Assembly (NCBI GenBank): GCA_045596605.1
Contig: JAZOCR010000159.1
Coordinates: 1 to 51,563 of the forward strand
Source of the DNA: Eubacteriales bacterium
Lineage (GTDB): Bacteria > Bacillota > Clostridia > Oscillospirales > CAG-382
DNA: 51,563 bases
Reading direction: 5' to 3'
Shown here: positions 1 to 9,171 of the stretch, piece after piece
Layout of the letters: each line of letters begins with the position of its first letter
Position numbering within the stretch: position 1 is the stretch's first letter
Notes under the pieces: generated by a model
The model's database searches: none
Seen by the model: the letters and a program-made list of their open reading frames with translations, nothing else
Told to the model about the DNA's origin: nothing
Translations under genes and position numbers: made by a program

Positions 1-882
1 GCTCGAATCTTGCGCGACATCACGTTCCTTTTTACAAGCAAAATGTTTCTCCTCTAAAACCTCGTTTGCTGCCGTTCTGACAATAATAGATTTTACGAGT
101 TTATCTAACTCTGAACCATCAGTATAATCAGTAGGTGTAAAATATTTAATACGGTTATCGGCTAACATCTGAAATGCTTTGCTTTTATCCAATGTACTAT
201 TGTCATAAACAGCTATGGAATGACCACCGTTAGCATTAACCAACTTCATACACGGAATATCCGTCATACTATCGCCTATATAAACAATGTTTCTGAACGG
301 AACACGAATCTTCTCAGGCTCAAAGTAGTCATTTACACCGGAATCGTTTACGTCTAACACGCCTTTTTCAATTCTAAACAGAAATTGTGTTTTGTTTGTG
401 TAATTGATGGCTTGCGCAGGCCAAATAGGTACATCCGCTTTATCAAACAAAAAGGAACTTGCATATATTTGTTCAAACTCTTTTGCTATGGCTGTTCCCT
501 CAATCATCTCTTTAAGCCCCGAAGATATGATATAATGCTCGACAATAACATTGTGTTGTCTGCCAAAATCCCTGATTCGCTCAAACCATCCCTCGACTCC
601 GGGGAACAATTTTACTTTGGCACCGTACTCCCTTAATGTTTTTCTTGTTAGCACAATACGCCCATGCGCGTGTTCCATCATTTTGCGCATATAGGCTAAA
701 TTGGAGTCCATTTCATTATTTTCTGCCAACTCCTTACACTCATCCCAAAATGCTTGTACATCATCGCCGAAAACCTCTTGAATATATCCCTGCGCCTGCA
801 TATCGTCGGGAGATAAGGTTTTATCAAAATCATAGCAAATTGCTAATACGGGCTTATCTTCTTTGGTACGTCTTTCAAGCAT
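1..882 (-). CDS. HAD-superfamily hydrolase (HAD-IB / phosphoserine-phosphatase-like); the C-terminal end runs off the window
   Basis: Absent from the ORF track because it has no stop inside the window. My reverse-strand translation from the ATG at 882..880 stays open to position 1 (294 codons): MLERRTKEDKPVLAICYDFDKTLSPDD... HAD motif I is DFDKT, and there is a motif IV-like GDSMTDIPCM. The SD-like GGTGAGGTGAG lies just upstream and is formed by the hsdS-end remnant. Confidence 0.8.
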   Translation of the reverse strand, partial: MLERRTKEDKPVLAICYDFDKTLSPDDMQAQGYIQEVFGDDVQAFWDECKELAENNEMDSNLAYMRKMMEHAHGRIVLTRKTLREYGAKVKLFPGVEGWFERIRDFGRQHNVIVEHYIISSGLKEMIEGTAIAKEFEQIYASSFLFDKADVPIWPAQAINYTNKTQFLFRIEKGVLDVNDSGVNDYFEPEKIRVPFRNIVYIGDSMTDIPCMKLVNANGGHSIAVYDNSTLDKSKAFQMLADNRIKYFTPTDYTDGSELDKLVKSIIVRTAANEVLEEKHFACKKERDVAQDSS

Positions 883-892
883 TATTCTCACC

Positions 893-950
893 TCACCCAA
901 AATATTTTTGCATCAACGCCATTCAGCGTTTCAAGCTTTTCAGCCCTCTT
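893..950 (-). repeat. Decayed copy (R3) of the hsdS 3' terminus, including its stop codon
   Basis: 893-919 matches the real hsdS end (3792-3818) at 26 of 27 positions. Weaker similarity continues for about 30 nt more, with an indel. Read on the minus strand it gives ..KRAEKLETLN / ALMQKYFG-stop, against hsdS ..KSLEKLEMLKKALMQKYFG-stop. The spurious plus-strand ORFs show the same peptide, HPKYFCINA, at both places. Confidence 0.8.
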
Positions 951-1040
951 AATTATACCATTTCATTTTATATGTAATATTTTCTACTCCGAGATTGCAA
1001 CGTGTGCGAACGAAGCAAAGTCGGAAAAGTTTTTATAAAA

Positions 1041-2354
1041 TCAAAATAGGTTATAAGCTTCCTTTTTCGATGCATTATGTTCGTCAACAAATTCGTCATC
1101 AAAGCAATCTGAATAATATTTTTGCGCCATTCGTTGCTCTACAGAGCGATTAAGAATTGCTGCATTACTTGTAGATAAATTAGCTATTCTAAAAGCTGAC
1201 ATAAAAAAATATATCCCTTTTTCAATAATAATTTTACCAATTAGTTCATCTGCAAAAGAAGAACTAATTAAATTAACACCAGAAAAGTCTAAAATAACAA
1301 TCTTTTTCTTATCAATTACAATATTCATTGCCATATTTCTAAGTTTTATAGCAGATTGTCTTGTTCCAGTTCCCCCGTACATTTCTGAAACTTGAATAAT
1401 ATACGCATTGCCACTTTCATTTTCAATATTTTCTAACCAAAAATCTATAGGCGTATGCCCGCCTAACGCATGTGTGATGTCAATTTTTTTGTCATAATTA
1501 ATAGAAACATCTACACATGCAGTGCCATTTCTTTTATCAATAATAAAGCCACCTTCTTTTTTTGTTACAGTTTCCGATTTATAACATCTATATACTGCAC
1601 CACCAGAAGAAATAGTCATTACTCCCATAGATTCACTAACGATACTTGACAACCCCCACAATCCATTACCTTGCCCTATGCGATCGTCTCGTGTTACCTT
1701 TTCCTGAAGAGCAAGTGTAATGGCATCAATTGGCTGCTCTGGGTGATATCTTGAATCTTTTAATGAATTGTATAGTCCCATACCCGAATCAAAAACGCAG
1801 AAAGTAAATGCTTTTGTTTGATTATAAATCTGTGCCATCACATATCCTTTAGAAGTTCCTGAGTGTTGAAGCACATTATCCATCACTTCATTTAAACACC
1901 ATTCAATACTACTGATTACTCCAGCTTCAACAATATCACTTTTTCTAAGTTCTAAAACAAATGCGGAAACTAATTTACACACCCCTTCGCCGGTTTCAAA
2001 TGTCCAAACCTTATCAAAAGGATAATCTATGTCAGAATTAGAACAAGATTCTACAGACAACGGATTCCAAAACCTTGTGTGTCTCACATAGTCATTTGAC
2101 GTATGCTCTATATGGATACGTATTCCCTTCTCCCTATAACGATCTAAAAGGCACGCCAGCGGAGCGCAAACATTGGCGTTGGTTCCTCTTTTCGTTGGAT
2201 TCACTTCGATAATTAGATACGAATATCCCTTTTTTATATGATTCTCAATCCATTTATAGACCTTTCCCACTTGAGAATAATGATCCAACATCAAATTAAA
2301 AACAGGAATTTTTTTATTATTGTTATTATTCTTTTTCGTTTTTCTATTTGACAT
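1041..2354 (-). CDS. GHKL (SpoIIAB/RsbW-like) ATPase/kinase domain fused to a C-terminal STAS-like domain, with an unassigned N-terminal region of about 150 aa
   Basis: 437 aa ORF with SD GAGGTG. Bergerat-fold boxes appear in order: N-box EWCLNEVMDNVLQHS, G1 FCVFDSGMGLYN, G2 RIGQGNGLWGL. The C-terminus KKIVILDFSGVNLISSSFADELIGK resembles STAS-like domains (DUF4325 type, from memory). Confidence 0.7.
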   Translation of the reverse strand: MSNRKTKKNNNNNKKIPVFNLMLDHYSQVGKVYKWIENHIKKGYSYLIIEVNPTKRGTNANVCAPLACLLDRYREKGIRIHIEHTSNDYVRHTRFWNPLSVESCSNSDIDYPFDKVWTFETGEGVCKLVSAFVLELRKSDIVEAGVISSIEWCLNEVMDNVLQHSGTSKGYVMAQIYNQTKAFTFCVFDSGMGLYNSLKDSRYHPEQPIDAITLALQEKVTRDDRIGQGNGLWGLSSIVSESMGVMTISSGGAVYRCYKSETVTKKEGGFIIDKRNGTACVDVSINYDKKIDITHALGGHTPIDFWLENIENESGNAYIIQVSEMYGGTGTRQSAIKLRNMAMNIVIDKKKIVILDFSGVNLISSSFADELIGKIIIEKGIYFFMSAFRIANLSTSNAAILNRSVEQRMAQKYYSDCFDDEFVDEHNASKKEAYNLF

Positions 2355-2447
2355 TTAACACCTCGCAAAAACATTTTTGCTTCAATAGCTTTTTAGAATT
2401 TCTAACTTTTTAAGATTTTTTCGAACGCATTTTCTCTTTTCTCAATT

Positions 2448-3062
2448 CTATCCTCTGGTAGAAAAATAAGTTATTAATGCAGCTATAGCTGCGGTTAACA
2501 AATACCATATTCCATTTGAAAGGATATTTTGCATTACTGCAATAAAACATTGCTTAAATTTTGAATCTTTCCTTGACGTATTCATATTTACGTTTGAACT
2601 TTGAGAAATCACCGTGTTATTATCCCCATGATTAATCGTTCCATTGTTTAAGTTCTTGATATTTATTTGAGATTCGATATATGTTACCTGTAATTCATCT
2701 TGTTCATCTATAGATGTTTTTTCCAAAATATTTGAGAAACTTTGGAGCTCAACTCTACTATCAGCGCTTATAGAGAGCTCAGTTAAATAATTAAAATAAA
2801 TTTTCTTTTTTTCAACAGAAATATTCCCAGCAAACGAAACCAAACTATAACCAGTCGAGCCATATGTAATCTCACAAAATTCTTGTATGCTATTTACATC
2901 ACACGTTATATCACCTAAATTAAACAAGAAATTCACTGATATGATTGTTTTATCACCGCCCCATTTTCTGGCACTTTTTTCTATCCACTCATAAGTTCTT
3001 TTTGTTTCTTCGAAAGTATCTATTCCATATTTTAATTCAATTTTTTTACTAAAACTTGCCAT
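2448..3062 (-). CDS. Hypothetical tail-anchored membrane protein: soluble N-domain, Asn/Ser-rich linker and a single C-terminal TM helix
   Basis: 204 aa ORF with a strong SD (AAGGAGA) before the ATG. The C-terminal hydrophobic stretch is IWYLLTAAIAALITYF. I recognise no catalytic motif. Confidence 0.7.
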   Translation of the reverse strand: MASFSKKIELKYGIDTFEETKRTYEWIEKSARKWGGDKTIISVNFLFNLGDITCDVNSIQEFCEITYGSTGYSLVSFAGNISVEKKKIYFNYLTELSISADSRVELQSFSNILEKTSIDEQDELQVTYIESQINIKNLNNGTINHGDNNTVISQSSNVNMNTSRKDSKFKQCFIAVMQNILSNGIWYLLTAAIAALITYFSTRG

Positions 3063-3081
3063 ATTTTCTCCTTATATTCAT

Positions 3082-3119
3082 TCACCCAAAATATTTCTGC
3101 ATCAACGCCTTCACACAAC
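3082..3119 (-). repeat. Copy (R2) of the hsdS 3' terminus, including its stop codon
   Basis: 3082-3108 is identical (27/27) to 3792-3818. It reads ..VK-ALMQKYFG-stop on the minus strand. About 8 more nt of similarity (CTTCA.CA) follow after a 3-nt gap. It sits between the stop of ORF 3120..3779 and the SD of ORF 2448..3062. Confidence 0.85.
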
Positions 3120-3779
3120 TTAAAACATATTATTTTTTAATTGCATCAAATCAAACGATTTGTTAATCATAGCACTATAGAACTCAGGCATTAATAATGT
3201 TAATAACTTATAGATGTCCGTCAAGATTTGCGCATAGTTATCATAAGTTTCTCGGCTTCTATCTACAGAATTTTTATCACCAACAATATCACCTAACTCT
3301 ATCAAAAGTTTGCAAAATTCACCATCTCTATCCTTTGTATGACCATTCCTTTTATCATCAACAATGGCAAGATAGAAATGATAACTATAACCAAGCTCAA
3401 TATATATGTGTTGTACTTCAGCATCTGATAATTCTTTGTTTTTTAAAATGTCCCCAATTCTTCCTATTACATTTTCGGTTCTCTTATAAAATTCCTTATA
3501 GTTATCTTTTTGTTCGGTTGTTGAGTATTCGTCATATGTTTTCAATCCCGAGATCAAGAAGAAAACAAATCCGGTTACAATACCAGCACTAACACTACAA
3601 AAAAATGAAGACCACACACCTGATGTTACGAACATTAAAACCGTTGTAACAATGAATGCAAAAAAAGAAATAATACACGCCCTTACATATTTGAACTTTA
3701 TTATCAGATTACAGAAAATCAACCTTGAAATCTTTTTTGGGGATTTCGAATTTGCAGCTAAATCTTCCAACCAGTTCAT
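3120..3779 (-). CDS. Hypothetical membrane protein: two N-terminal TM helices and a helical cytoplasmic C-domain of about 140 aa
   Basis: Track ORF is 3120..3788. I prefer the ATG at 3779 (MNWLEDL..), which lies 8 nt after GGTGAGGAG and 12 nt after the hsdS stop. TM segments are ACIISFFAFIVTTVLMFV and FCSVSAGIVTGFVFFLISGL. No recognisable motif. Confidence 0.7.
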   Translation of the reverse strand: MNWLEDLAANSKSPKKISRLIFCNLIIKFKYVRACIISFFAFIVTTVLMFVTSGVWSSFFCSVSAGIVTGFVFFLISGLKTYDEYSTTEQKDNYKEFYKRTENVIGRIGDILKNKELSDAEVQHIYIELGYSYHFYLAIVDDKRNGHTKDRDGEFCKLLIELGDIVGDKNSVDRSRETYDNYAQILTDIYKLLTLLMPEFYSAMINKSFDLMQLKNNMF

Positions 3780-3791
3780 TTCAAACACTCC

Positions 3792-4907
3792 TCACCCAAA
3801 ATATTTCTGCATCAACGCTTTCTTCAGCATTTCAAGTTTTTCAAGACTCTTTTGAATTTCCAATTTTGATTTGTCGGTCTGTTCGACAAAAACAATATAG
3901 TCCTTTTGTAATTTAATTGGTGGAATAATCTGCATATATGCTTTCATAATTGCAGTATTCAAATTAGGTTGCGTACCAGCTGGTGCTATTGCTCTGAAAT
4001 GCTCTGTCATTTGATTCAACGCTTGCAATAAAAATACTTTATCTAACCTATTATCTATATTTTCCATCGCAAGCCAACCATCGTGAATACATCCATCAAA
4101 AGTAATTATTCTTGCAAATCCAAGAGAAACTCCACAATTTGCAAAGATTAAACTACCTTTTTTTACTAAACGACTCTTTCTTACACCCTCTTGGATAATA
4201 TGTTCTTTCGTAGCGTGCAGATAGACATTATCACCTTTTGTTGCATCCCCAATCTTAATCCAAGGAATCGTTCCACCTAAATACTGCTCAATAGGTCTTG
4301 GAGAACCACCTCTCGAAATATCACACAGATTGCCAAGAGGTTCTATATCCCACCCTTTATCATTTACATTTATATCCCCAAACAGTTCGACAAATCGTGC
4401 TTTGACAAGCTCGTCAATTTTTGAGAGTTGCTGTTTGCGGAGAGAAATCAAATGACTTACCATATCCAATTCATTGGCGATTTTCTTTTGCACCTCAATA
4501 TTTGGCAAATAAAATGAAAGAGCATCAAAAATTGGCTTTGTCAAGTGTTTCATAGTTGCACCATGCACCTCACTGGAAGCATTATTCAAAATACTTTCCA
4601 CTTGATGCACAAAGAAGCTTGTGTCAACTTCCGCTTTATCGAATATCACTTTAAAAATGTGCTGATTCAGGACAGCCTTTTCCCCCGCCCACACATATAC
4701 ACCAAGACTTGCTGACCAAGAGATAAGTACGTCTCCACAGTTCACCTCATACCTTGCGTCATATTTGCCATTATATCGATTTGCTTGATATGAATTTCCA
4801 GTTAAATCTTGAATGCGAATAATTGGAACACCTTCGCTTGACCAATCTGTTGGCTTGAAAGCATAACCATTAATATATGTTGCAATATCACCTAACCTCG
4901 CCATCAT
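3792..4907 (-). CDS. hsdS: Type I restriction-modification specificity subunit HsdS (two target-recognition domains)
   Basis: N-terminus MMARLGDIATYINGYAFKP. The second TRD starts at LGNLCDISRGGSPRP. The central spacer LRKQQLSKIDELVKARFVELFG and the C-terminal spacer LEKLEMLKKALMQKYFG are the duplicated conserved helices typical of HsdS. The likely start ATG(ATG) at 4907/4904 overlaps the upstream stop (ATGA); the track ORF extends to 4985. Confidence 0.9.
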   Translation of the reverse strand: MMARLGDIATYINGYAFKPTDWSSEGVPIIRIQDLTGNSYQANRYNGKYDARYEVNCGDVLISWSASLGVYVWAGEKAVLNQHIFKVIFDKAEVDTSFFVHQVESILNNASSEVHGATMKHLTKPIFDALSFYLPNIEVQKKIANELDMVSHLISLRKQQLSKIDELVKARFVELFGDINVNDKGWDIEPLGNLCDISRGGSPRPIEQYLGGTIPWIKIGDATKGDNVYLHATKEHIIQEGVRKSRLVKKGSLIFANCGVSLGFARIITFDGCIHDGWLAMENIDNRLDKVFLLQALNQMTEHFRAIAPAGTQPNLNTAIMKAYMQIIPPIKLQKDYIVFVEQTDKSKLEIQKSLEKLEMLKKALMQKYFG

Positions 4908-5251
4908 AAAAACCTCTCTTTCATCCATATACAGCCACATATCAAAACAATTATTACAATCACTACAATGAGAATCCACCACCACGCAAAAGAGAAAATT
5001 CCCATTAAAGCCAACACACCAGTAATTGCCGCATTTGCAACTAAGTACAATAGACTACCCAATGCTGGAAAGTCACCTCTATGATATACCAAATGTACCA
5101 AAGCAAACGCCACTACATGGATAATCGGTTCAGAAATCCAGTTTATCAAAACTGCATTATCACCAAAGCATTCAAAAGGGTTTGGCAAATAGAATTGTCG
5201 AACAATTACACTGAGCGTTGCCATTATTCCATATAAAGATAATCTTCTCAC
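4904..5251 (-). CDS. Small hypothetical membrane protein (about 3 TM helices) lying between hsdM and hsdS
   Basis: 115 aa ORF that fills the whole hsdM-hsdS gap. Its GTG start overlaps the hsdM stop (GTGA); an alternative ATG is at 5224. Its stop overlaps the hsdS start (ATGA). Hydrophobic segments are IIHVVAFALVHLVY, LGSLLYLVANAAITGVLALMGIF and WWWILIVVIVIIVLICGCIW. Confidence 0.6.
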   Translation of the reverse strand: MRRLSLYGIMATLSVIVRQFYLPNPFECFGDNAVLINWISEPIIHVVAFALVHLVYHRGDFPALGSLLYLVANAAITGVLALMGIFSFAWWWILIVVIVIIVLICGCIWMKERFL

Positions 5252-6804
5252 AACAATTCCTCCAACTCATCCAGTCCCTTTGTAATTTCCATTTCAAGCT
5301 CGTGAAGGTCTGCCATAATTTCAGCAGTTGATGGATATTCTACGGGCTTATATTCGGTCTTTTTGTACTTGTTGATTGAAAGGTCATAGTCGTTTTCTAC
5401 TATCTCCTCTTTGGGAACAAAGAAGGATTTATCCGTGCGCTCTCTTGCAGATTCAGGGATAAATGGTGTATCCGGAACAAAAGCATCGCTTGGTGCAGAA
5501 GAAGGTAAATTCTCTGCAAAACGCAAATGGAATCTATTTATAATATCGGGTATATCATTTTCTGAAACTGGGCTTCTCTTATCGTCAAGAGAAAATCCGT
5601 CTGCCTGCATATCGTAGAACCAAATGTTATCTGTTCCGCCGTGTCCTGTTTTGGTAAATACAAGTATAGCAGTAGAAACACCGGAATAGGGTTTAAACAC
5701 GCCTGAAGGCATAGAAACAACTGCTTCAAGACGGTTGTTTTCAATAATTTCCTTGCGGATTGCTTTGTGGGCAGTTGAAGAACCGAAAAGCACTCCATCA
5801 GGAACAATACAAGCACATCTTCCGCCAACCTTAAGCATACGCAAAAACAGTGTGAGGAACAGAAGCTCTGTCTTTTTTGTTTTACAGATTTTAAGTAAAT
5901 CGGTAGATACTATGTCATAGTCAAGGCTTCCCTTAAAAGGCGGGTTTGCAAGAATAAGGGAATATTTTTCCCTATCTGAATTCTGGTCGGAAAGGCTGTC
6001 ACGATACTCAATAAAGGGGCTATCAATGCCGTGGGTCATCATATTCATCGCACCGATACGGAGCATAGTTCTATCCATATCGTAGCCGAAGAACATAGAA
6101 TTCATATAGTGGTCTTTTTTTATCTTATTATAAAAAATCTCTTCCTTGTGATTTTCTTTCAAGTACTCACCCGCAGCTACAAGGAAACCGCTCGTTCCAC
6201 ACGCTGGGTCGCATATATTGTCGTCCGGCTTTGGCTGCATCATAGTTACCATCATTTTGATTATGTGTCTGGGCGTTCTGAACTGACCGTTAAGACCTGA
6301 TTGTGCAATTTTGTTCAAAAGATATTCGTATACGTCACCTCTTACGTCATTATCAGATGAAATCTTCATCATTTCATAGATATCGTCAAGGCAGGTTACT
6401 ACCTTATCAAGAAGAAGAGGAGTAGGAATTTTAAAAATTGCATCGTCCATATATTTTGAATAAGCGCTATCCTTGTCTGCGTGCAGATTCTTTATAAAAG
6501 GAAAAACCCATTCCTGCATAACGGAATACATCTTGCCGGCAGGAAAGTCACGAAAAGTTGACCACTTGAGCTGGTTTCCGTCAATGGTACGCTCCCCAAT
6601 TGTAACTTCTGATGCAAAAATGCTGTTATGAGGAAGACCAAGCATTGCACTCTCTTTTGCGCGAAGGTTGTCTGTATCGTCAAGGTCGTGGATAAACATC
6701 AAATAAGTAATTTGCTCAATTACGTCAAGGGGGTTAACAAGTCCACCTGAAGCAAATATATCCCAAAGTCCGTCTATCTTGTTTTTAAGTTCGCCTGTAA
6801 TCAT
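5248..6804 (-). CDS. hsdM: Type I restriction-modification N6-adenine DNA methyltransferase subunit HsdM
   Basis: AdoMet motif I is DPACGTSGFL and catalytic motif IV is LANPPF. The N-terminus is HsdM-like (LWDIFASGG..QITYLMF). The likely start is the ATG at 6804 (MITGELKNK), 1 nt after the fic stop; the track ORF extends to 6852. Confidence 0.95.
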   Translation of the reverse strand: MITGELKNKIDGLWDIFASGGLVNPLDVIEQITYLMFIHDLDDTDNLRAKESAMLGLPHNSIFASEVTIGERTIDGNQLKWSTFRDFPAGKMYSVMQEWVFPFIKNLHADKDSAYSKYMDDAIFKIPTPLLLDKVVTCLDDIYEMMKISSDNDVRGDVYEYLLNKIAQSGLNGQFRTPRHIIKMMVTMMQPKPDDNICDPACGTSGFLVAAGEYLKENHKEEIFYNKIKKDHYMNSMFFGYDMDRTMLRIGAMNMMTHGIDSPFIEYRDSLSDQNSDREKYSLILANPPFKGSLDYDIVSTDLLKICKTKKTELLFLTLFLRMLKVGGRCACIVPDGVLFGSSTAHKAIRKEIIENNRLEAVVSMPSGVFKPYSGVSTAILVFTKTGHGGTDNIWFYDMQADGFSLDDKRSPVSENDIPDIINRFHLRFAENLPSSAPSDAFVPDTPFIPESARERTDKSFFVPKEEIVENDYDLSINKYKKTEYKPVEYPSTAEIMADLHELEMEITKGLDELEELL

Positions 6805-6805
6805 T

Positions 6806-7885
6806 TTAATAGTCCTCTCTATTCCAAATATAGGAAGTATATCTTCCTCCACTGAGCTTAATTATTTTTCCTTTTTTAAGAAGGTCATTCAGCGTCCTTT
6901 GCACTGTTGTTTCACTTATATCGGGGCATTTGTTTATAATATCCTGCTTGGTTACCTTGCCAAGTGTATCTTCAATGGTTTTTGCAACTATTTCAGGCTT
7001 TGAAAGCTTACTTTCAATTATCATCTGAACTCGGTTTGCAAATTCTCTGTGAGCTGAAAGAATAACAGAAAGCATATATTTAACAAAAGGTGCATAATCG
7101 TTTTGATTTTCGTGCCATCCATATGAGCTTTTCTGAAGAGCATCGTAGTAATTGTCCTTTGTGGTTTCAATAAGCTTCTCTATACTGATATATTTACCCA
7201 CAATATAACCACTACGGTAAAGCAGTAAAAGTGTAAGCAGTCTGCTCATTCGTCCGTTGCCGTCGTTAAATGGATGTATGCACAAAAAATCAAGTACGAA
7301 CATAGGGATTGCGAGGAGCGGATTTATAGCTTCTAATGCAATTGCCTCGTTATATGCCGCACAGAGATTTTCTATACTCTCCGGTACTTCCCATGCCTCT
7401 ACCGGTTGGAAACGAACAAATCTGTTACCCTGTGCATCTTCTTCGGCTATAACATTGTCAACATTCTTGTACTGACCACCGTATGTTACTGTATTAAATC
7501 TATATAAATCTCTGTGAAGCTGTAAAATAATGTTGGGTTTTACCGGAATTCCGTCGTGGTTAGTGTGGATTGTATTCAGAACATCACGATAGCCTGCGAT
7601 TTCCTCTTCCGCTCTGTTCATAGGGTTGGTTTTTGATAACGCCAGCTTCTTGATTCTTTCGTCAGAAGTATATATACCTTCTATTTTATTGGATGCTTCC
7701 GTACTCTGTATTTTTGCAATATCAACAAGACTTGTAAGTACATCAACACTTGATTCTATAAATGAATTCTGTTTTCCTTTGTATTCGTGAATCTGCGTAA
7801 GCATCGAAACAATGTCAGGCGTTAAAAACTGCTCCCATTTATTTTTATAATTGTATACTCTCATAAGGCTCTCCTTTCGACGCAA
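6806..7885 (-). CDS. fic: Fic-family protein (AMPylase-type) with an intramolecular inhibitory helix and a C-terminal winged-helix-like domain
   Basis: Fic motif HPFNDGNGRMSR. The N-terminal SNKIEG fits the (S/T)xxxE(G/N) inhibitory motif (class II arrangement). The C-terminus KQDIINKCPDISETTVQRTLNDLLKKGKI looks like a wHTH. SD AAAGGAGAG precedes the ATG. Confidence 0.93.
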   Translation of the reverse strand: MRRKESLMRVYNYKNKWEQFLTPDIVSMLTQIHEYKGKQNSFIESSVDVLTSLVDIAKIQSTEASNKIEGIYTSDERIKKLALSKTNPMNRAEEEIAGYRDVLNTIHTNHDGIPVKPNIILQLHRDLYRFNTVTYGGQYKNVDNVIAEEDAQGNRFVRFQPVEAWEVPESIENLCAAYNEAIALEAINPLLAIPMFVLDFLCIHPFNDGNGRMSRLLTLLLLYRSGYIVGKYISIEKLIETTKDNYYDALQKSSYGWHENQNDYAPFVKYMLSVILSAHREFANRVQMIIESKLSKPEIVAKTIEDTLGKVTKQDIINKCPDISETTVQRTLNDLLKKGKIIKLSGGRYTSYIWNREDY

Positions 7886-7910: not shown

Positions 7911-7939
7911 ATTATACAATACAATTATGCCTTTGTCAA
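7911..7939 (-). promoter_or_regulatory. Sigma-A type promoter for the fic-hsd operon: TTGACA, 17-nt spacer, TATAAT
   Basis: The minus strand reads TTGACAaaggcataattgtattgTATAAT. The -10 ends about 25 nt upstream of the fic ATG. Confidence 0.6.
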
Positions 7940-7979: not shown

Positions 7980-8183
7980 GCATTTTTGAAAAGTTAAATC
8001 GCAATTGCGAGAATAAAGTAGTCATATGGCACAAAAACGTAGAATTACAAAATTATAAATCAAACCATCGTTAACCGCAGTTAACGAATCGAGTTTTCTT
8101 TCATTCTTATATTAGACAATAGACCCACCACAGGAGTTAACTCATTTCTATTGTACTTTATAAAATCTTTGGAGGAAATCAAA

Positions 8184-8450
8184 ATGCAAAAACACAAAAC
8201 ATTCGACCTAAGATGTAACATCGACAACCAAGGGACACTGACTATTCGTATCCCACAAAAGCTGTACAAAGAATATGAGCAGAAGGTGCAAAATAATAAT
8301 ATGCACTTGCTCTACGAAATTTTTGAGGACTATTCCAAGCTTCCGCCGAGTCTGCGAAGGTTGTTCCAACACCGCCTTCTTGGAAATATTGACAGGTTAG
8401 GTACTCTTGAAGACGTGCTATTTCTTTTATGGGACACAAAATTAAAGTAG
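8184..8450 (+). CDS. Hypothetical small protein (88 aa)
   Basis: Good SD (GGAGGAAATCAAA-ATG) at the internal Met of track ORF 8151..8450. No motif recognised. Confidence 0.55.
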   Translation: MQKHKTFDLRCNIDNQGTLTIRIPQKLYKEYEQKVQNNNMHLLYEIFEDYSKLPPSLRRLFQHRLLGNIDRLGTLEDVLFLLWDTKLK

Positions 8451-8457
8451 AACCACA

Positions 8458-8487
8458 GAACCCGATGAGATGATTCTCATCGGGTTC
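8458..8487 (+). other. Perfect 12-bp stem-loop between the two small plus-strand ORFs
   Basis: GAACCCGATGAG, loop atgatt, CTCATCGGGTTC. No T-run follows it. Confidence 0.5.
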
Positions 8488-8524
8488 TACACAAGAACAA
8501 AGAACATAATTAACAGGAGGTACT

Positions 8525-8788
8525 ATGACATCAATACTTAAAGATTTTTGGTGCGGGAATATTGTGCCCTGCAGTGATTCTAAAAGTGCCACGCAGGAAA
8601 TGCAGGACCTTTCAGAATACATCTCCAGACATCGAGAAGGCTTACTTAAAACAATGTCAGGCGAACAAAAAGAAATCTTTGAAAAACTTGAAGATTGTCA
8701 AAAAGAATATTCTCAACTTTCAGAAGAAGCAATATTTGAATATGGCTTCAGGCTTGGAATGAGAATTGCTTTTGAAACACTTCACTGA
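8525..8788 (+). CDS. Hypothetical small helical protein (87 aa). It resembles a family I associate with Firmicutes integrative/conjugative elements (possibly DUF6809, from memory).
   Basis: Strong SD (AGGAGGTACT-ATG). Pattern: DFWCGNIVPC...QKEIFEKLEDC...EEAIFEYGFRLGMRIAFETL. Confidence 0.6.
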   Translation: MTSILKDFWCGNIVPCSDSKSATQEMQDLSEYISRHREGLLKTMSGEQKEIFEKLEDCQKEYSQLSEEAIFEYGFRLGMRIAFETLH

Positions 8789-8976: not shown

Positions 8977-9054
<78 letters not shown>

Positions 9055-9082
9055 ATATATTTAATTTCGATTTCCGATTTTG

Positions 9083-9171
9083 TGGTGCCGGAAACCGGGC
9101 TCGAACCGGTACGGGAGGTTAGTCCCACGGGATTTTAAGTCCCGGGCGTCTGCCAATTTCGCCACTCCGGC
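9083..9171 (-). tRNA. tRNA-Leu (UAA)
   Basis: Minus strand: GCCGGAGTGGCGAAATTGGCAGACGCCCGGGACTTAAAATCCCGTGGGACTAACCTCCCGTACCGGTTCGAGCCCGGTTTCCGGCACCA. It has a long variable arm, anticodon loop CT-TAA-AA and an encoded CCA. Confidence 0.93.

Follow-up and report, generated by a model that had tools for sequence, protein, structure and literature searches.

How do unrelated accessory genes come to sit inside a Type I restriction-modification (R-M) operon, and what does their arrival leave behind? Embedding in R-M, BREX and similar operons has been used to discover immune systems, and the route by which the embedded genes enter had been left open. We address this question with a stretch of 51,563 nucleotides (nt) from a Eubacteriales bacterium (assembly GCA_045596605.1, contig JAZOCR010000159.1, positions 1 to 51,563). 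In what follows, the window designates this whole 51.5-kb stretch. Its minus strand carries an operon that runs off position 1 and has the order Fic-hsdM-orf115-hsdS-[orf219][orf204][orf437][HAD/PDC-S34]. In the list of open reading frames (ORFs), the four ORFs downstream of hsdS are co-oriented and mutually unrelated. A sequence-only reading of the region had noticed copies of the hsdS 3' terminus ahead of these genes and proposed that they allow accessory cassettes to be swapped or concatenated. The region is best read as the slot for accessory genes in a Type I R-M operon with the layout Fic-hsdM-x-hsdS-[cassettes]-hsdR. We consider it likely that cassettes in this slot are exchanged by homologous recombination via the conserved flanks, that stacks of cassettes arise by illegitimate joins between hsdR heads and hsdS tails, and that the orphan gene ends between cassettes are the scars of these events.

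Copies of hsdS and hsdR ends between the cassettes

On the minus strand, the 27-mer GCGTTGATGCAGAAATATTTTGGGTGA forms the true end of hsdS (3792-3818) and recurs at 3082-3108 (27/27 identical) and at 893-919 (26/27). The shuffled window contained no match to it at up to 3 mismatches. The next start codon lies 12, 19 and 10 nt after the TGA of these three copies, respectively, in agreement with the 10-19 nt given by the sequence-only reading. The window was also searched with nhmmer using two profiles, one built from 33 related hsdS genes (their last 90 nt, +12; tail profile), the other from hsdR starts, -20 to +150 (head profile). Hereafter T denotes the intact hsdS 3' tail and H the intact hsdR head, while T* and H* denote orphan copies of them. 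The positions and identities of the three tails described earlier were upheld by the 27-mer search and the shuffles; their number was not, as nhmmer added a fourth tail at 2358-2427. The window thus holds one intact and three orphan tails, all in direct orientation, and each cassette has one upstream (Table 1).

T*2 begins 11 nt past the orf219 stop codon. T*3 still provides GAGG ahead of the orf437 start, and it aligns to the intact tail of a related locus, L114, inside a 1350-nt match of 76% identity. T*4 carries the Shine-Dalgarno (SD) sequence GGTGAG ahead of the HAD gene. The intact hsdR is outside the window and, from the layout of the operon, is expected beyond position 1; the sole hsdR sequence in the window is a 97-nt 5' remnant, H*. 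This remnant comprises the region upstream of hsdR and about 28 codons (the first ~85 nt of hsdR), with the start codon changed from ATG to ATA. It reads ..FDFIKT..PDFASFAHVAISE up to a stop codon, where intact hsdR genes read MTNFDFLLSTPDFASFASVAVSAEK. The stop codon of orf437 is inside H*, and T*4 (885-949) begins ~20 nt downstream of it.

Neither profile found a further tail or head copy in the remainder of the 51.5-kb window. A weak tail-like match within the HAD gene (744-768, nhmmer E=4.6) was attributed to chance. On visual inspection alone, the 3' part of orf219 might contain an hsdR-head remnant and T*3 is preceded by a GAGAAAAT motif; neither is significant, and nothing is claimed for them. 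The linker formed by H* and T*4 (883-1030, minus strand) folds better than its shuffles (z=-2.66), which stems from a hairpin within the hsdR-head remnant (TCCGAC..GTTGCAATCTCGGA).

A hypervariable slot between hsdS and hsdR in related operons

Related loci (L-numbers) were found by means of the window's own 24-mer tail and cover only hsdS families bearing this 24-mer; the comparative evidence comes wholly from draft metagenome-assembled genomes (MAGs) and metagenome contigs. Among species-level genomes, 39 contain the 24-mer, in 41 stretches altogether; metagenomes add 72 stretches. The carriers among the 39 genomes are all gut or rumen Clostridia, mostly Oscillospiraceae-like MAGs. The tail was absent from viral contigs and the region had no plasmid match, so that there is no evidence for a phage or plasmid vehicle. 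Most occurrences are the true ends of hsdS ORFs of 350-430 amino acids (aa); within ~10 nt of each such end, and after a conserved GGTGA SD, a differing gene begins. An unusual conservation of the tail itself was considered and rejected: its last 30 nt reach an identity of 0.91 because that very sequence served as the search query.

The common architecture of these loci is (Fic)-hsdM-[0-2 small ORFs]-hsdS-[0-4 modules]-hsdR. The hsdR product, encoded after the cassettes, is ~1098 aa long, begins MTNFDFL and contains ResIII, DEAD and EcoEI_R_C domains. Cataloguing the genes that follow related hsdS stops, a check suggested by the sequence-only reading, yielded 224 ORFs in the tail-to-head slot. 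They fall into 84 families (F-numbers), 49 of them singletons, and the flanks are shared across ~113 loci; tail remnants recurred among the loci. The slot, 41 to 3089 nt long, therefore combines conserved flanks with diverse cargo as a hotspot does, with 84 families between T and H. Among the families are Abi_alpha/PDC-S47, AbiH, DUF3990/PDC-M13A, DUF2806, DUF4062, HEPN-like proteins and numerous small membrane proteins. Over half of the cassettes found belong to no known family. Going by these annotations, the hsdS-hsdR gap of this operon family houses highly diverse genes, mostly of putative defence type.

The gap between hsdM and hsdS is a second variable slot (window 4904-5251; L007, L010, L011, L029, L031). 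It contains a 114-118-aa membrane ORF, a 158-aa 'MAKKKDKPQ..' ORF, both, a RhuM-like ORF (L121) or none; the position of the window's orf115 is taken in L007 and L010 by homologous ORFs of 114/118 aa. Among 68 loci with an hsdM-tail match, none had an orphan hsdM tail there, and this slot thus lacks the scar signature of the hsdS-hsdR slot. In the three metagenome loci L042 (6731-6828), L060 (5334-5429) and L086 (240-336), the frame ahead of a full-length hsdS tail stays open over no more than 68-115 codons, which could reflect either hsdS genes with a frameshift or hsdS remnants of greater length.

Recurrence, variation and decay of the orphan copies

Orphan tails and/or heads lie between modules in 10 of 63 distinct complete slots, with further cases in incomplete stretches (the window, L007, L048, L088 and L113). 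In these alignments, what lies between stacked modules is a truncated T, a truncated H or both. Orphan tails are always direct and always downstream of a real hsdS, with no inverted copy, and on their right side they run past the stop codon and the SD into the gene that follows. The left ends of orphan tails are spread over profile positions 9 to 66, and orphan heads, which we classed by profile end position, finish on the right anywhere between 91 and 125. H* abuts T* in L041 and L007, and is found without a detectable T* in L008, L105 and L118. Where the linker consists of a tail only, T* begins 0-20 nt past the stop codon of the preceding cassette.

The orphans also decay. L041 carries a frameshift, the stop codon is lost in T*3 of the window, in L007 and in L037, TGA has become TAG in L025, and internal deletions are apparent in the orphan tail of L037 when it is compared with L025/L033. 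Because the left ends are variable and the decay is pseudogene-like (frameshifts, lost stops), the orphan tails are best described as putative decaying scars, pseudogene-like fragments rather than a maintained site. On this point the recombination landing pad of the sequence-only reading is not supported as stated. In L029 and L025 the sequence of the orphan tail differs from that of the resident tail, which indicates that tails were imported together with cassettes.

The small membrane protein family F8 reads into the next orphan tail (L025 1091-1495, L033 233-619, L037 863-1291, L048 429-824), and its C-terminus, ..QKISRLISEELNK, resembles the hsdS tail peptide EIQKSLEKLETLKKA. Here a former scar has apparently become coding sequence. 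Some orphan heads retain both an SD and an ATG (L008 1604-1720, L041 1605-1679, L118 8328-8426) and could be translated to peptides of the HsdR N-terminus, from 25 (L041) to 39 (L008) residues long.

Relatives of the window cassettes in the same slot

Relatives of all four window cassettes reside in the hsdS-hsdR slot elsewhere, and those of three of the four directly after an intact hsdS. The proposal that the cassettes bring with them junctions from loci where they came immediately after hsdS is accordingly supported for HAD, orf437 and orf204; the relative of orf219 is in the same slot, though not directly behind hsdS. A HAD homologue directly follows an intact hsdS tail and directly precedes hsdR in L031, L062, L079 and L110. 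The orf437 homologue P0002 (79% identity) forms the arrangement hsdS-X-hsdR in L114/L115, and nucleotide homology between the window and L114 (76% identity) begins inside the tail. There are 15 homologues of orf204, slot residents between hsdS and hsdR in L118-122; in L118-120 they directly follow an intact hsdS, with the same spacer as that between the orphan T*2 and orf204. The predicted alternatives, an hsdS followed directly by an orf204 or a HAD homologue, thus exist in other loci. The single homologue of orf219 among 5.8 billion proteins, P0138 (59% identity), is located between the hsdS tail and the hsdR head in L123/L124, separated from hsdS by one small ORF, orf66. All four window ORFs share the orientation of the hsd genes and have homologues nested between hsdS and hsdR (L031, L114, L118 and L123), which is the pattern of embedding.

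In L121 (7706-9254) and L122 (1228-2776), the slot holds a tyrosine recombinase followed by a 176-aa half hsdS, a phase-variation-type module that forms one 'cassette' beside the orf204 homologue.

Cassette functions are inferred from family matches only. The HAD gene matches the candidate PDC-S34; orf437 has a weak HATPase_c_2 match in Pfam and a partial match to the PADLOC DrmA model (E=2e-27); orf219 and orf204 had no family match in the Pfam/PADLOC scans. The accessory genes of the window are probably anti-phage.

Homology boundaries at the hsdS tail and the hsdR head

L077 and L078 form a near-isogenic pair. Identity between them is 95-100% along hsdM and 99-100% along the second half of hsdS including its TGA; immediately past it they are unrelated (F10 versus F73), and their hsdR genes are only ~80% identical. 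Near-identity through the stop codon with unrelated sequence right after it marks the hsdS tail as a swap boundary, which supports the sequence-only reading. Within hsdS, only the first target-recognition domain (TRD1) is swapped between the two (L077 ~2377-2817). Since they differ in TRD1 and in cassette, recognition-domain and cassette swapping occur in one locus.

L029 and L113 share a block of 87.5% identity that extends from inside T, across F22, to the last base of T*, beyond which the sequence differs. L025 and L048 have F8 and T* in common and diverge 9 nt past T*. Breakpoints at the flanks, another feature of hotspots, are therefore found in L077/L078, L029/L113, L025/L048 and window/L114. 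The linkers of L041 and L007 contain the same fusion, GCGGAGAATT(C/A)AA, in which hsdR codon ~25 is joined to hsdS GAAATTCAAAAG with possible microhomology GAAA(A)TT, and their cassettes differ on both flanks. The orphan heads of the window, L008 and L118 have differing end points, which implies several independent joins.

The same modules are met in different settings. HAD is flanked by intact T and intact H in four loci, but follows H*T* in the window and L007; F20 has an upstream T* with three different left ends; F22 comes first in L113 and second in L029. Across the aligned loci, shared gene families recur at different positions with different neighbours, and inter-locus homology begins or ends at T or H.

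Proposed exchange of cassettes and head-to-tail joining

In the mechanism that we propose, homologous recombination would substitute one cassette for another by two crossovers, the first within T or upstream of it, the second in H or hsdR. Stacking would require that the hsdR head behind one cassette be illegitimately joined to the hsdS tail ahead of another, and some of these joins may occur at short microhomology such as GAAA(A)TT. Such joins could come from unequal exchange between locus copies, from a tandem duplication whose ends fall in T and H, with replacement afterwards, or from a circularised T-cassette-H unit that becomes inserted. Every such route would leave an H*-T* linker and keep hsdS and hsdR intact. 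Linkers would later erode through small deletions and point mutations, H* often being wholly lost, and even while eroding could still be used as crossover points and so reshuffle modules. Concatenation by tail-tail homology alone, as imagined in the sequence-only reading, does not account for the linkers: these are fusions of hsdR 5' and hsdS 3' remnants, or eroded versions of them, and a non-homologous head-to-tail join is required.

Several observations weigh against this mechanism. The collections contain no close strain of the window locus, and for this locus no intermediate, polymorphism, circle or deletion variant is on record, the clean excision of 3109-3818 between the two identical 27-mers being a prediction; exact-protein look-ups of the window hsdS and orf204 gave no match. 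No stack contains a tandem duplicate of one cassette, and the route that begins with duplication is without direct support. Most orphan tails have no detectable H*, and for those the head-to-tail origin is extrapolated. Once search bias is allowed for, the tail is no more conserved than the rest of the operon. Between species hsdR is only 65-80% identical along its whole length, so that exchange by homologous recombination would take place mainly between close relatives. Finally, the 27/27 identity of T and T*2 could be due to recent duplication, gene conversion or selection.

The orphan ends might instead be left-overs of collapsed tandem loci, that is, of second R-M operons or of extra or partial hsdS genes, like those of phase-variable loci, that were deleted. 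In formal terms, a deletion that began within hsdR and ended within the following hsdS would produce an H*-T* junction, and the slot of L121/L122 does hold a tyrosine recombinase and half an hsdS. However, tandem operons of 6-7 kb would be needed repeatedly in many lineages, and each deletion would have to end within ~100 nt of the hsdR start and within ~90 nt of the hsdS end. No retrieved stretch has two tails or two heads of full profile length, orphan tails starting after profile position 8 span less than 90 nt without recognition-domain sequence, and the copies are all direct, none inverted. We therefore regard this explanation as unlikely. Selection for expression is another candidate: the last ~30 nt of the tail (…TTTTGGGTGAGGTGA) would be kept as an efficient ribosome-binding and translational-coupling element for inserted genes. 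Most intact tails, and many of the orphan ones, retain an SD (GGTGA/GAGG) after the stop, with a start codon 5-12 nt beyond it, and T* often provides the SD of the next cassette. Yet the window orf204 and cassettes in L004, L037, L041 and L029 use their own SD 20-100 nt further on, and selection on the SD leaves unexplained both the 30-60 nt of tail sequence upstream and the hsdR heads. Such a module is quite unlikely to be the explanation; it is compatible with exchange and head-to-tail joining as a secondary benefit, and may add to the retention of the last ~30 nt.

An integron-like, site-specific system, in which the tail or the H-T linker would be the attachment site of a recombinase encoded elsewhere and cassettes would excise and re-insert as circles, would fit the array-like layout of promoterless co-oriented cassettes with the same repeat ahead of each, as well as the occurrence of one linker between different cassette pairs in L041 and L007. 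It also has a precedent in the recombinase-driven, direct-repeat-guided excision-reintegration at the Type I tvr locus (PMC6265443). We find no recombinase domain in any ORF of the window operon (1-7885), and most related loci likewise lack a recombinase gene. The ends are variable (T* left ends 9 to 66, H* right ends 91 to 125), the orphans gather frameshifts and substitutions, and an attC-like fold of the tails was rejected, their folding being no better than that of shuffles (z-scores -0.1 to 0.5). These features make a site-specific system very unlikely. Chance similarity or an assembly artefact, to which the AT-richness of the region lends the only support, has an almost negligible probability, given that shuffles had no match, that profile E-values range from 5e-4 to 4e-12, that the same architecture appears in independent assemblies from many studies, and that the final assembly k-mer given in several related contig names (141) exceeds the length of the repeats (27-70 nt).

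Exchange via the flanks with head-to-tail joining is thus the explanation that we retain. A bolder version of it, which we hold to be doubtful, would make the H-T linkers the working parts of a recombinase-independent capture system, 'an integron without an integrase'. If this were true, circles of cassette plus H-T would excise by recombination between direct tails and go back into any operon of this family, at its tail or its head, and Type I operons would assemble, reorder and exchange defence arrays at appreciable rates.

Features of the window operon

The coordinates of the operon and of its orphan gene ends are collected in Table 1. Its place among Type I R-M systems follows from hsdM and an hsdS with two target-recognition domains (Pfam, PADLOC). 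The start of hsdM was set at MITGELKNK, following its relatives, and the PADLOC Specificity_I match covers the full length of hsdS. A Fic gene is also found upstream of hsdM in L007, L010, L027, L029, L035, L118 and L121. The Pfam/PADLOC family scans gave no match for orf115.

Table 1. Genes, gene-end copies and promoter-like site of the window operon, in the order of transcription.
Feature	Position	Strand	Evidence
Promoter-like site TTGACA-17-TATAAT, upstream of Fic gene	7911..7939	minus	12/12 consensus match only
Fic-domain gene (SoFic-like), first gene of operon	6806..7885	minus	Pfam Fic E=6.5e-15; PADLOC SoFic E=2e-41
hsdM	5248..6804	minus	Pfam N6_Mtase E=8e-64, HsdM_N; PADLOC MTase_I E=4e-178
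orf115, small membrane protein, variable hsdM-hsdS slot	4904..5251	minus	ORF list
hsdS, two target-recognition domains	3792..4907	minus	Pfam Methylase_S two stretches E=9e-35; PADLOC Specificity_I E=3e-67
T, intact hsdS tail (last 90 nt) + SD of next gene	3784..3881	minus	nhmmer profile 1-98, E=6e-26
orf219, cassette 1, protein with two transmembrane segments, no family	3120..3779	minus	ORF list
T*2, orphan tail, 31 nt, 27/27 vs resident tail	3081..3111	minus	nhmmer profile 61-91, E=1.4e-6
orf204, cassette 2, C-terminally membrane-anchored, no family	2448..3062	minus	ORF list
T*3, decayed orphan tail, stop TGA to CGA	2358..2427	minus	nhmmer profile 24-95, E=5e-4 within window
orf437, cassette 3, GHKL-type ATPase + STAS-like DUF4325	1041..2354	minus	Pfam DUF4325 E=3e-11
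H*, orphan hsdR 5' end, 97 nt	970..1066	minus	nhmmer hsdR-start profile 8-105, E=9e-11
T*4, orphan tail, about 58-75 nt, last 27 nt 26/27	885..949	minus	nhmmer profile 32-98, E=4e-12
HAD-family gene, cassette 4, PADLOC candidate PDC-S34	1..882, runs off window	minus	PDC-S34 E=3.5e-157; Pfam HAD

The site at 7911..7939 is a perfect match to the sigma-70 consensus and likely the operon promoter. No convincing terminator was seen on the minus strand from this site to position 1. The two observations together suggest that the cassette stack is co-transcribed with the R-M genes, probably from the promoter upstream of Fic. Directly upstream of the Fic-hsd operon are a tRNA-Met and a tRNA-Leu (8977-9171) and two small plus-strand ORFs (8151-8788), while in L114 the same operon type adjoins smpB. 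The operon thus occupies different chromosomal sites in different genomes.

Comparison with known systems

PrrC in EcoprrI is a defence gene embedded in a Type I R-M operon. The rlo and mlo genes of Campylobacter jejuni, embedded in hsd loci, are cited in PMC5183652, and in enteropathogenic Escherichia coli (EPEC) DarTG2 is located between hsdS and hsdR, at a site called a 'potential recombination hotspot' (PMC12255303). Payne et al. 2024 (bioRxiv 10.1101/2024.01.29.577857) used 'guilt-by-embedding' to define PDC candidates including PDC-S34, invoked a genomic sink, and noted that the significance of embedding 'remains to be explored'. The window resembles these cases in its co-oriented accessory genes of putative defence type after hsdS, which have relatives between hsdS and hsdR, and its HAD gene itself matches the embedding-derived candidate PDC-S34. 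The reports on embedded defence genes deal with what is embedded and not with the route of entry, whereas the stacks of the window show scars. Embedding of defence genes in Type I loci is known; the scar architecture is undescribed in the literature searched, where a full-text search gave no description of hsdS 3' tails or hsdR 5' remnants between stacked cassettes.

The loci carry a readable record, with intact gene ends as swap boundaries and truncated hsdS tails or hsdR heads as stacking events. This record offers a concrete mechanism and a means of reconstructing the history of defence arrays. In practice, orphan hsdS 3' ends or hsdR 5' ends provide a signature that delimits cassettes. These results suggest that the operon's own coding sequence doubles as a recombination scaffold for accessory immunity genes.

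Hotspots of gene turnover between conserved core genes (Oliveira et al. 2017, PMC5635113), such as the core defence hotspots of Pseudomonas aeruginosa (PMC10250203), also have conserved flanks and very diverse cargo. Many of them are without mobility genes, and their turnover is attributed to homologous recombination in the flanks. In our case, two genes of the same operon, only a few hundred bases from each other, form the flanks, and the cargo would consist of single genes expressed from the host operon. Unlike core-gene hotspots, the stacks keep truncated copies of both flanks and so record individual insertion events.

Integron arrays are alike in outline: promoterless co-oriented cassettes lie behind an upstream promoter with recurring linkers between them, and new cassettes could likewise come in beside the conserved end. 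The window differs from them in having neither integrase nor attC hairpin, and in linkers that are pieces of the flanking genes, with variable ends and in decay. The window system is not a member of the integron family.

At the phase-variable ivr/tvr loci, as proposed here, repeats in conserved regions of hsdS are recombination substrates within a Type I locus. At tvr of Streptococcus pneumoniae, excision-reintegration is guided by direct repeats, circular intermediates are documented, a recombinase is used, and what moves are hsdS fragments (PMC6265443). A dedicated recombinase shuffles recognition domains among partial hsdS genes at ivr/tvr and changes specificity, whereas the window repeats contain no recognition domain, no recombinase is present, and the moving parts are unrelated accessory genes. 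Nor does the window have the make-up of a shufflon: its orphan tails comprise just 31-70 nt, all from the C-terminal conserved region, the copies are direct, and the operon has no recombinase. In the 'domain movement' of Helicobacter pylori hsdS, domains are swapped through conserved regions (PMC3077401). There, as proposed here, conserved coding regions of hsdS serve as recombination homology, and the L077/L078 pair is also TRD1-swapped. Domain movement exchanges parts of hsdS; in the operons described here, it is the exchange of the downstream genes that the C-terminal conserved region of hsdS bounds.

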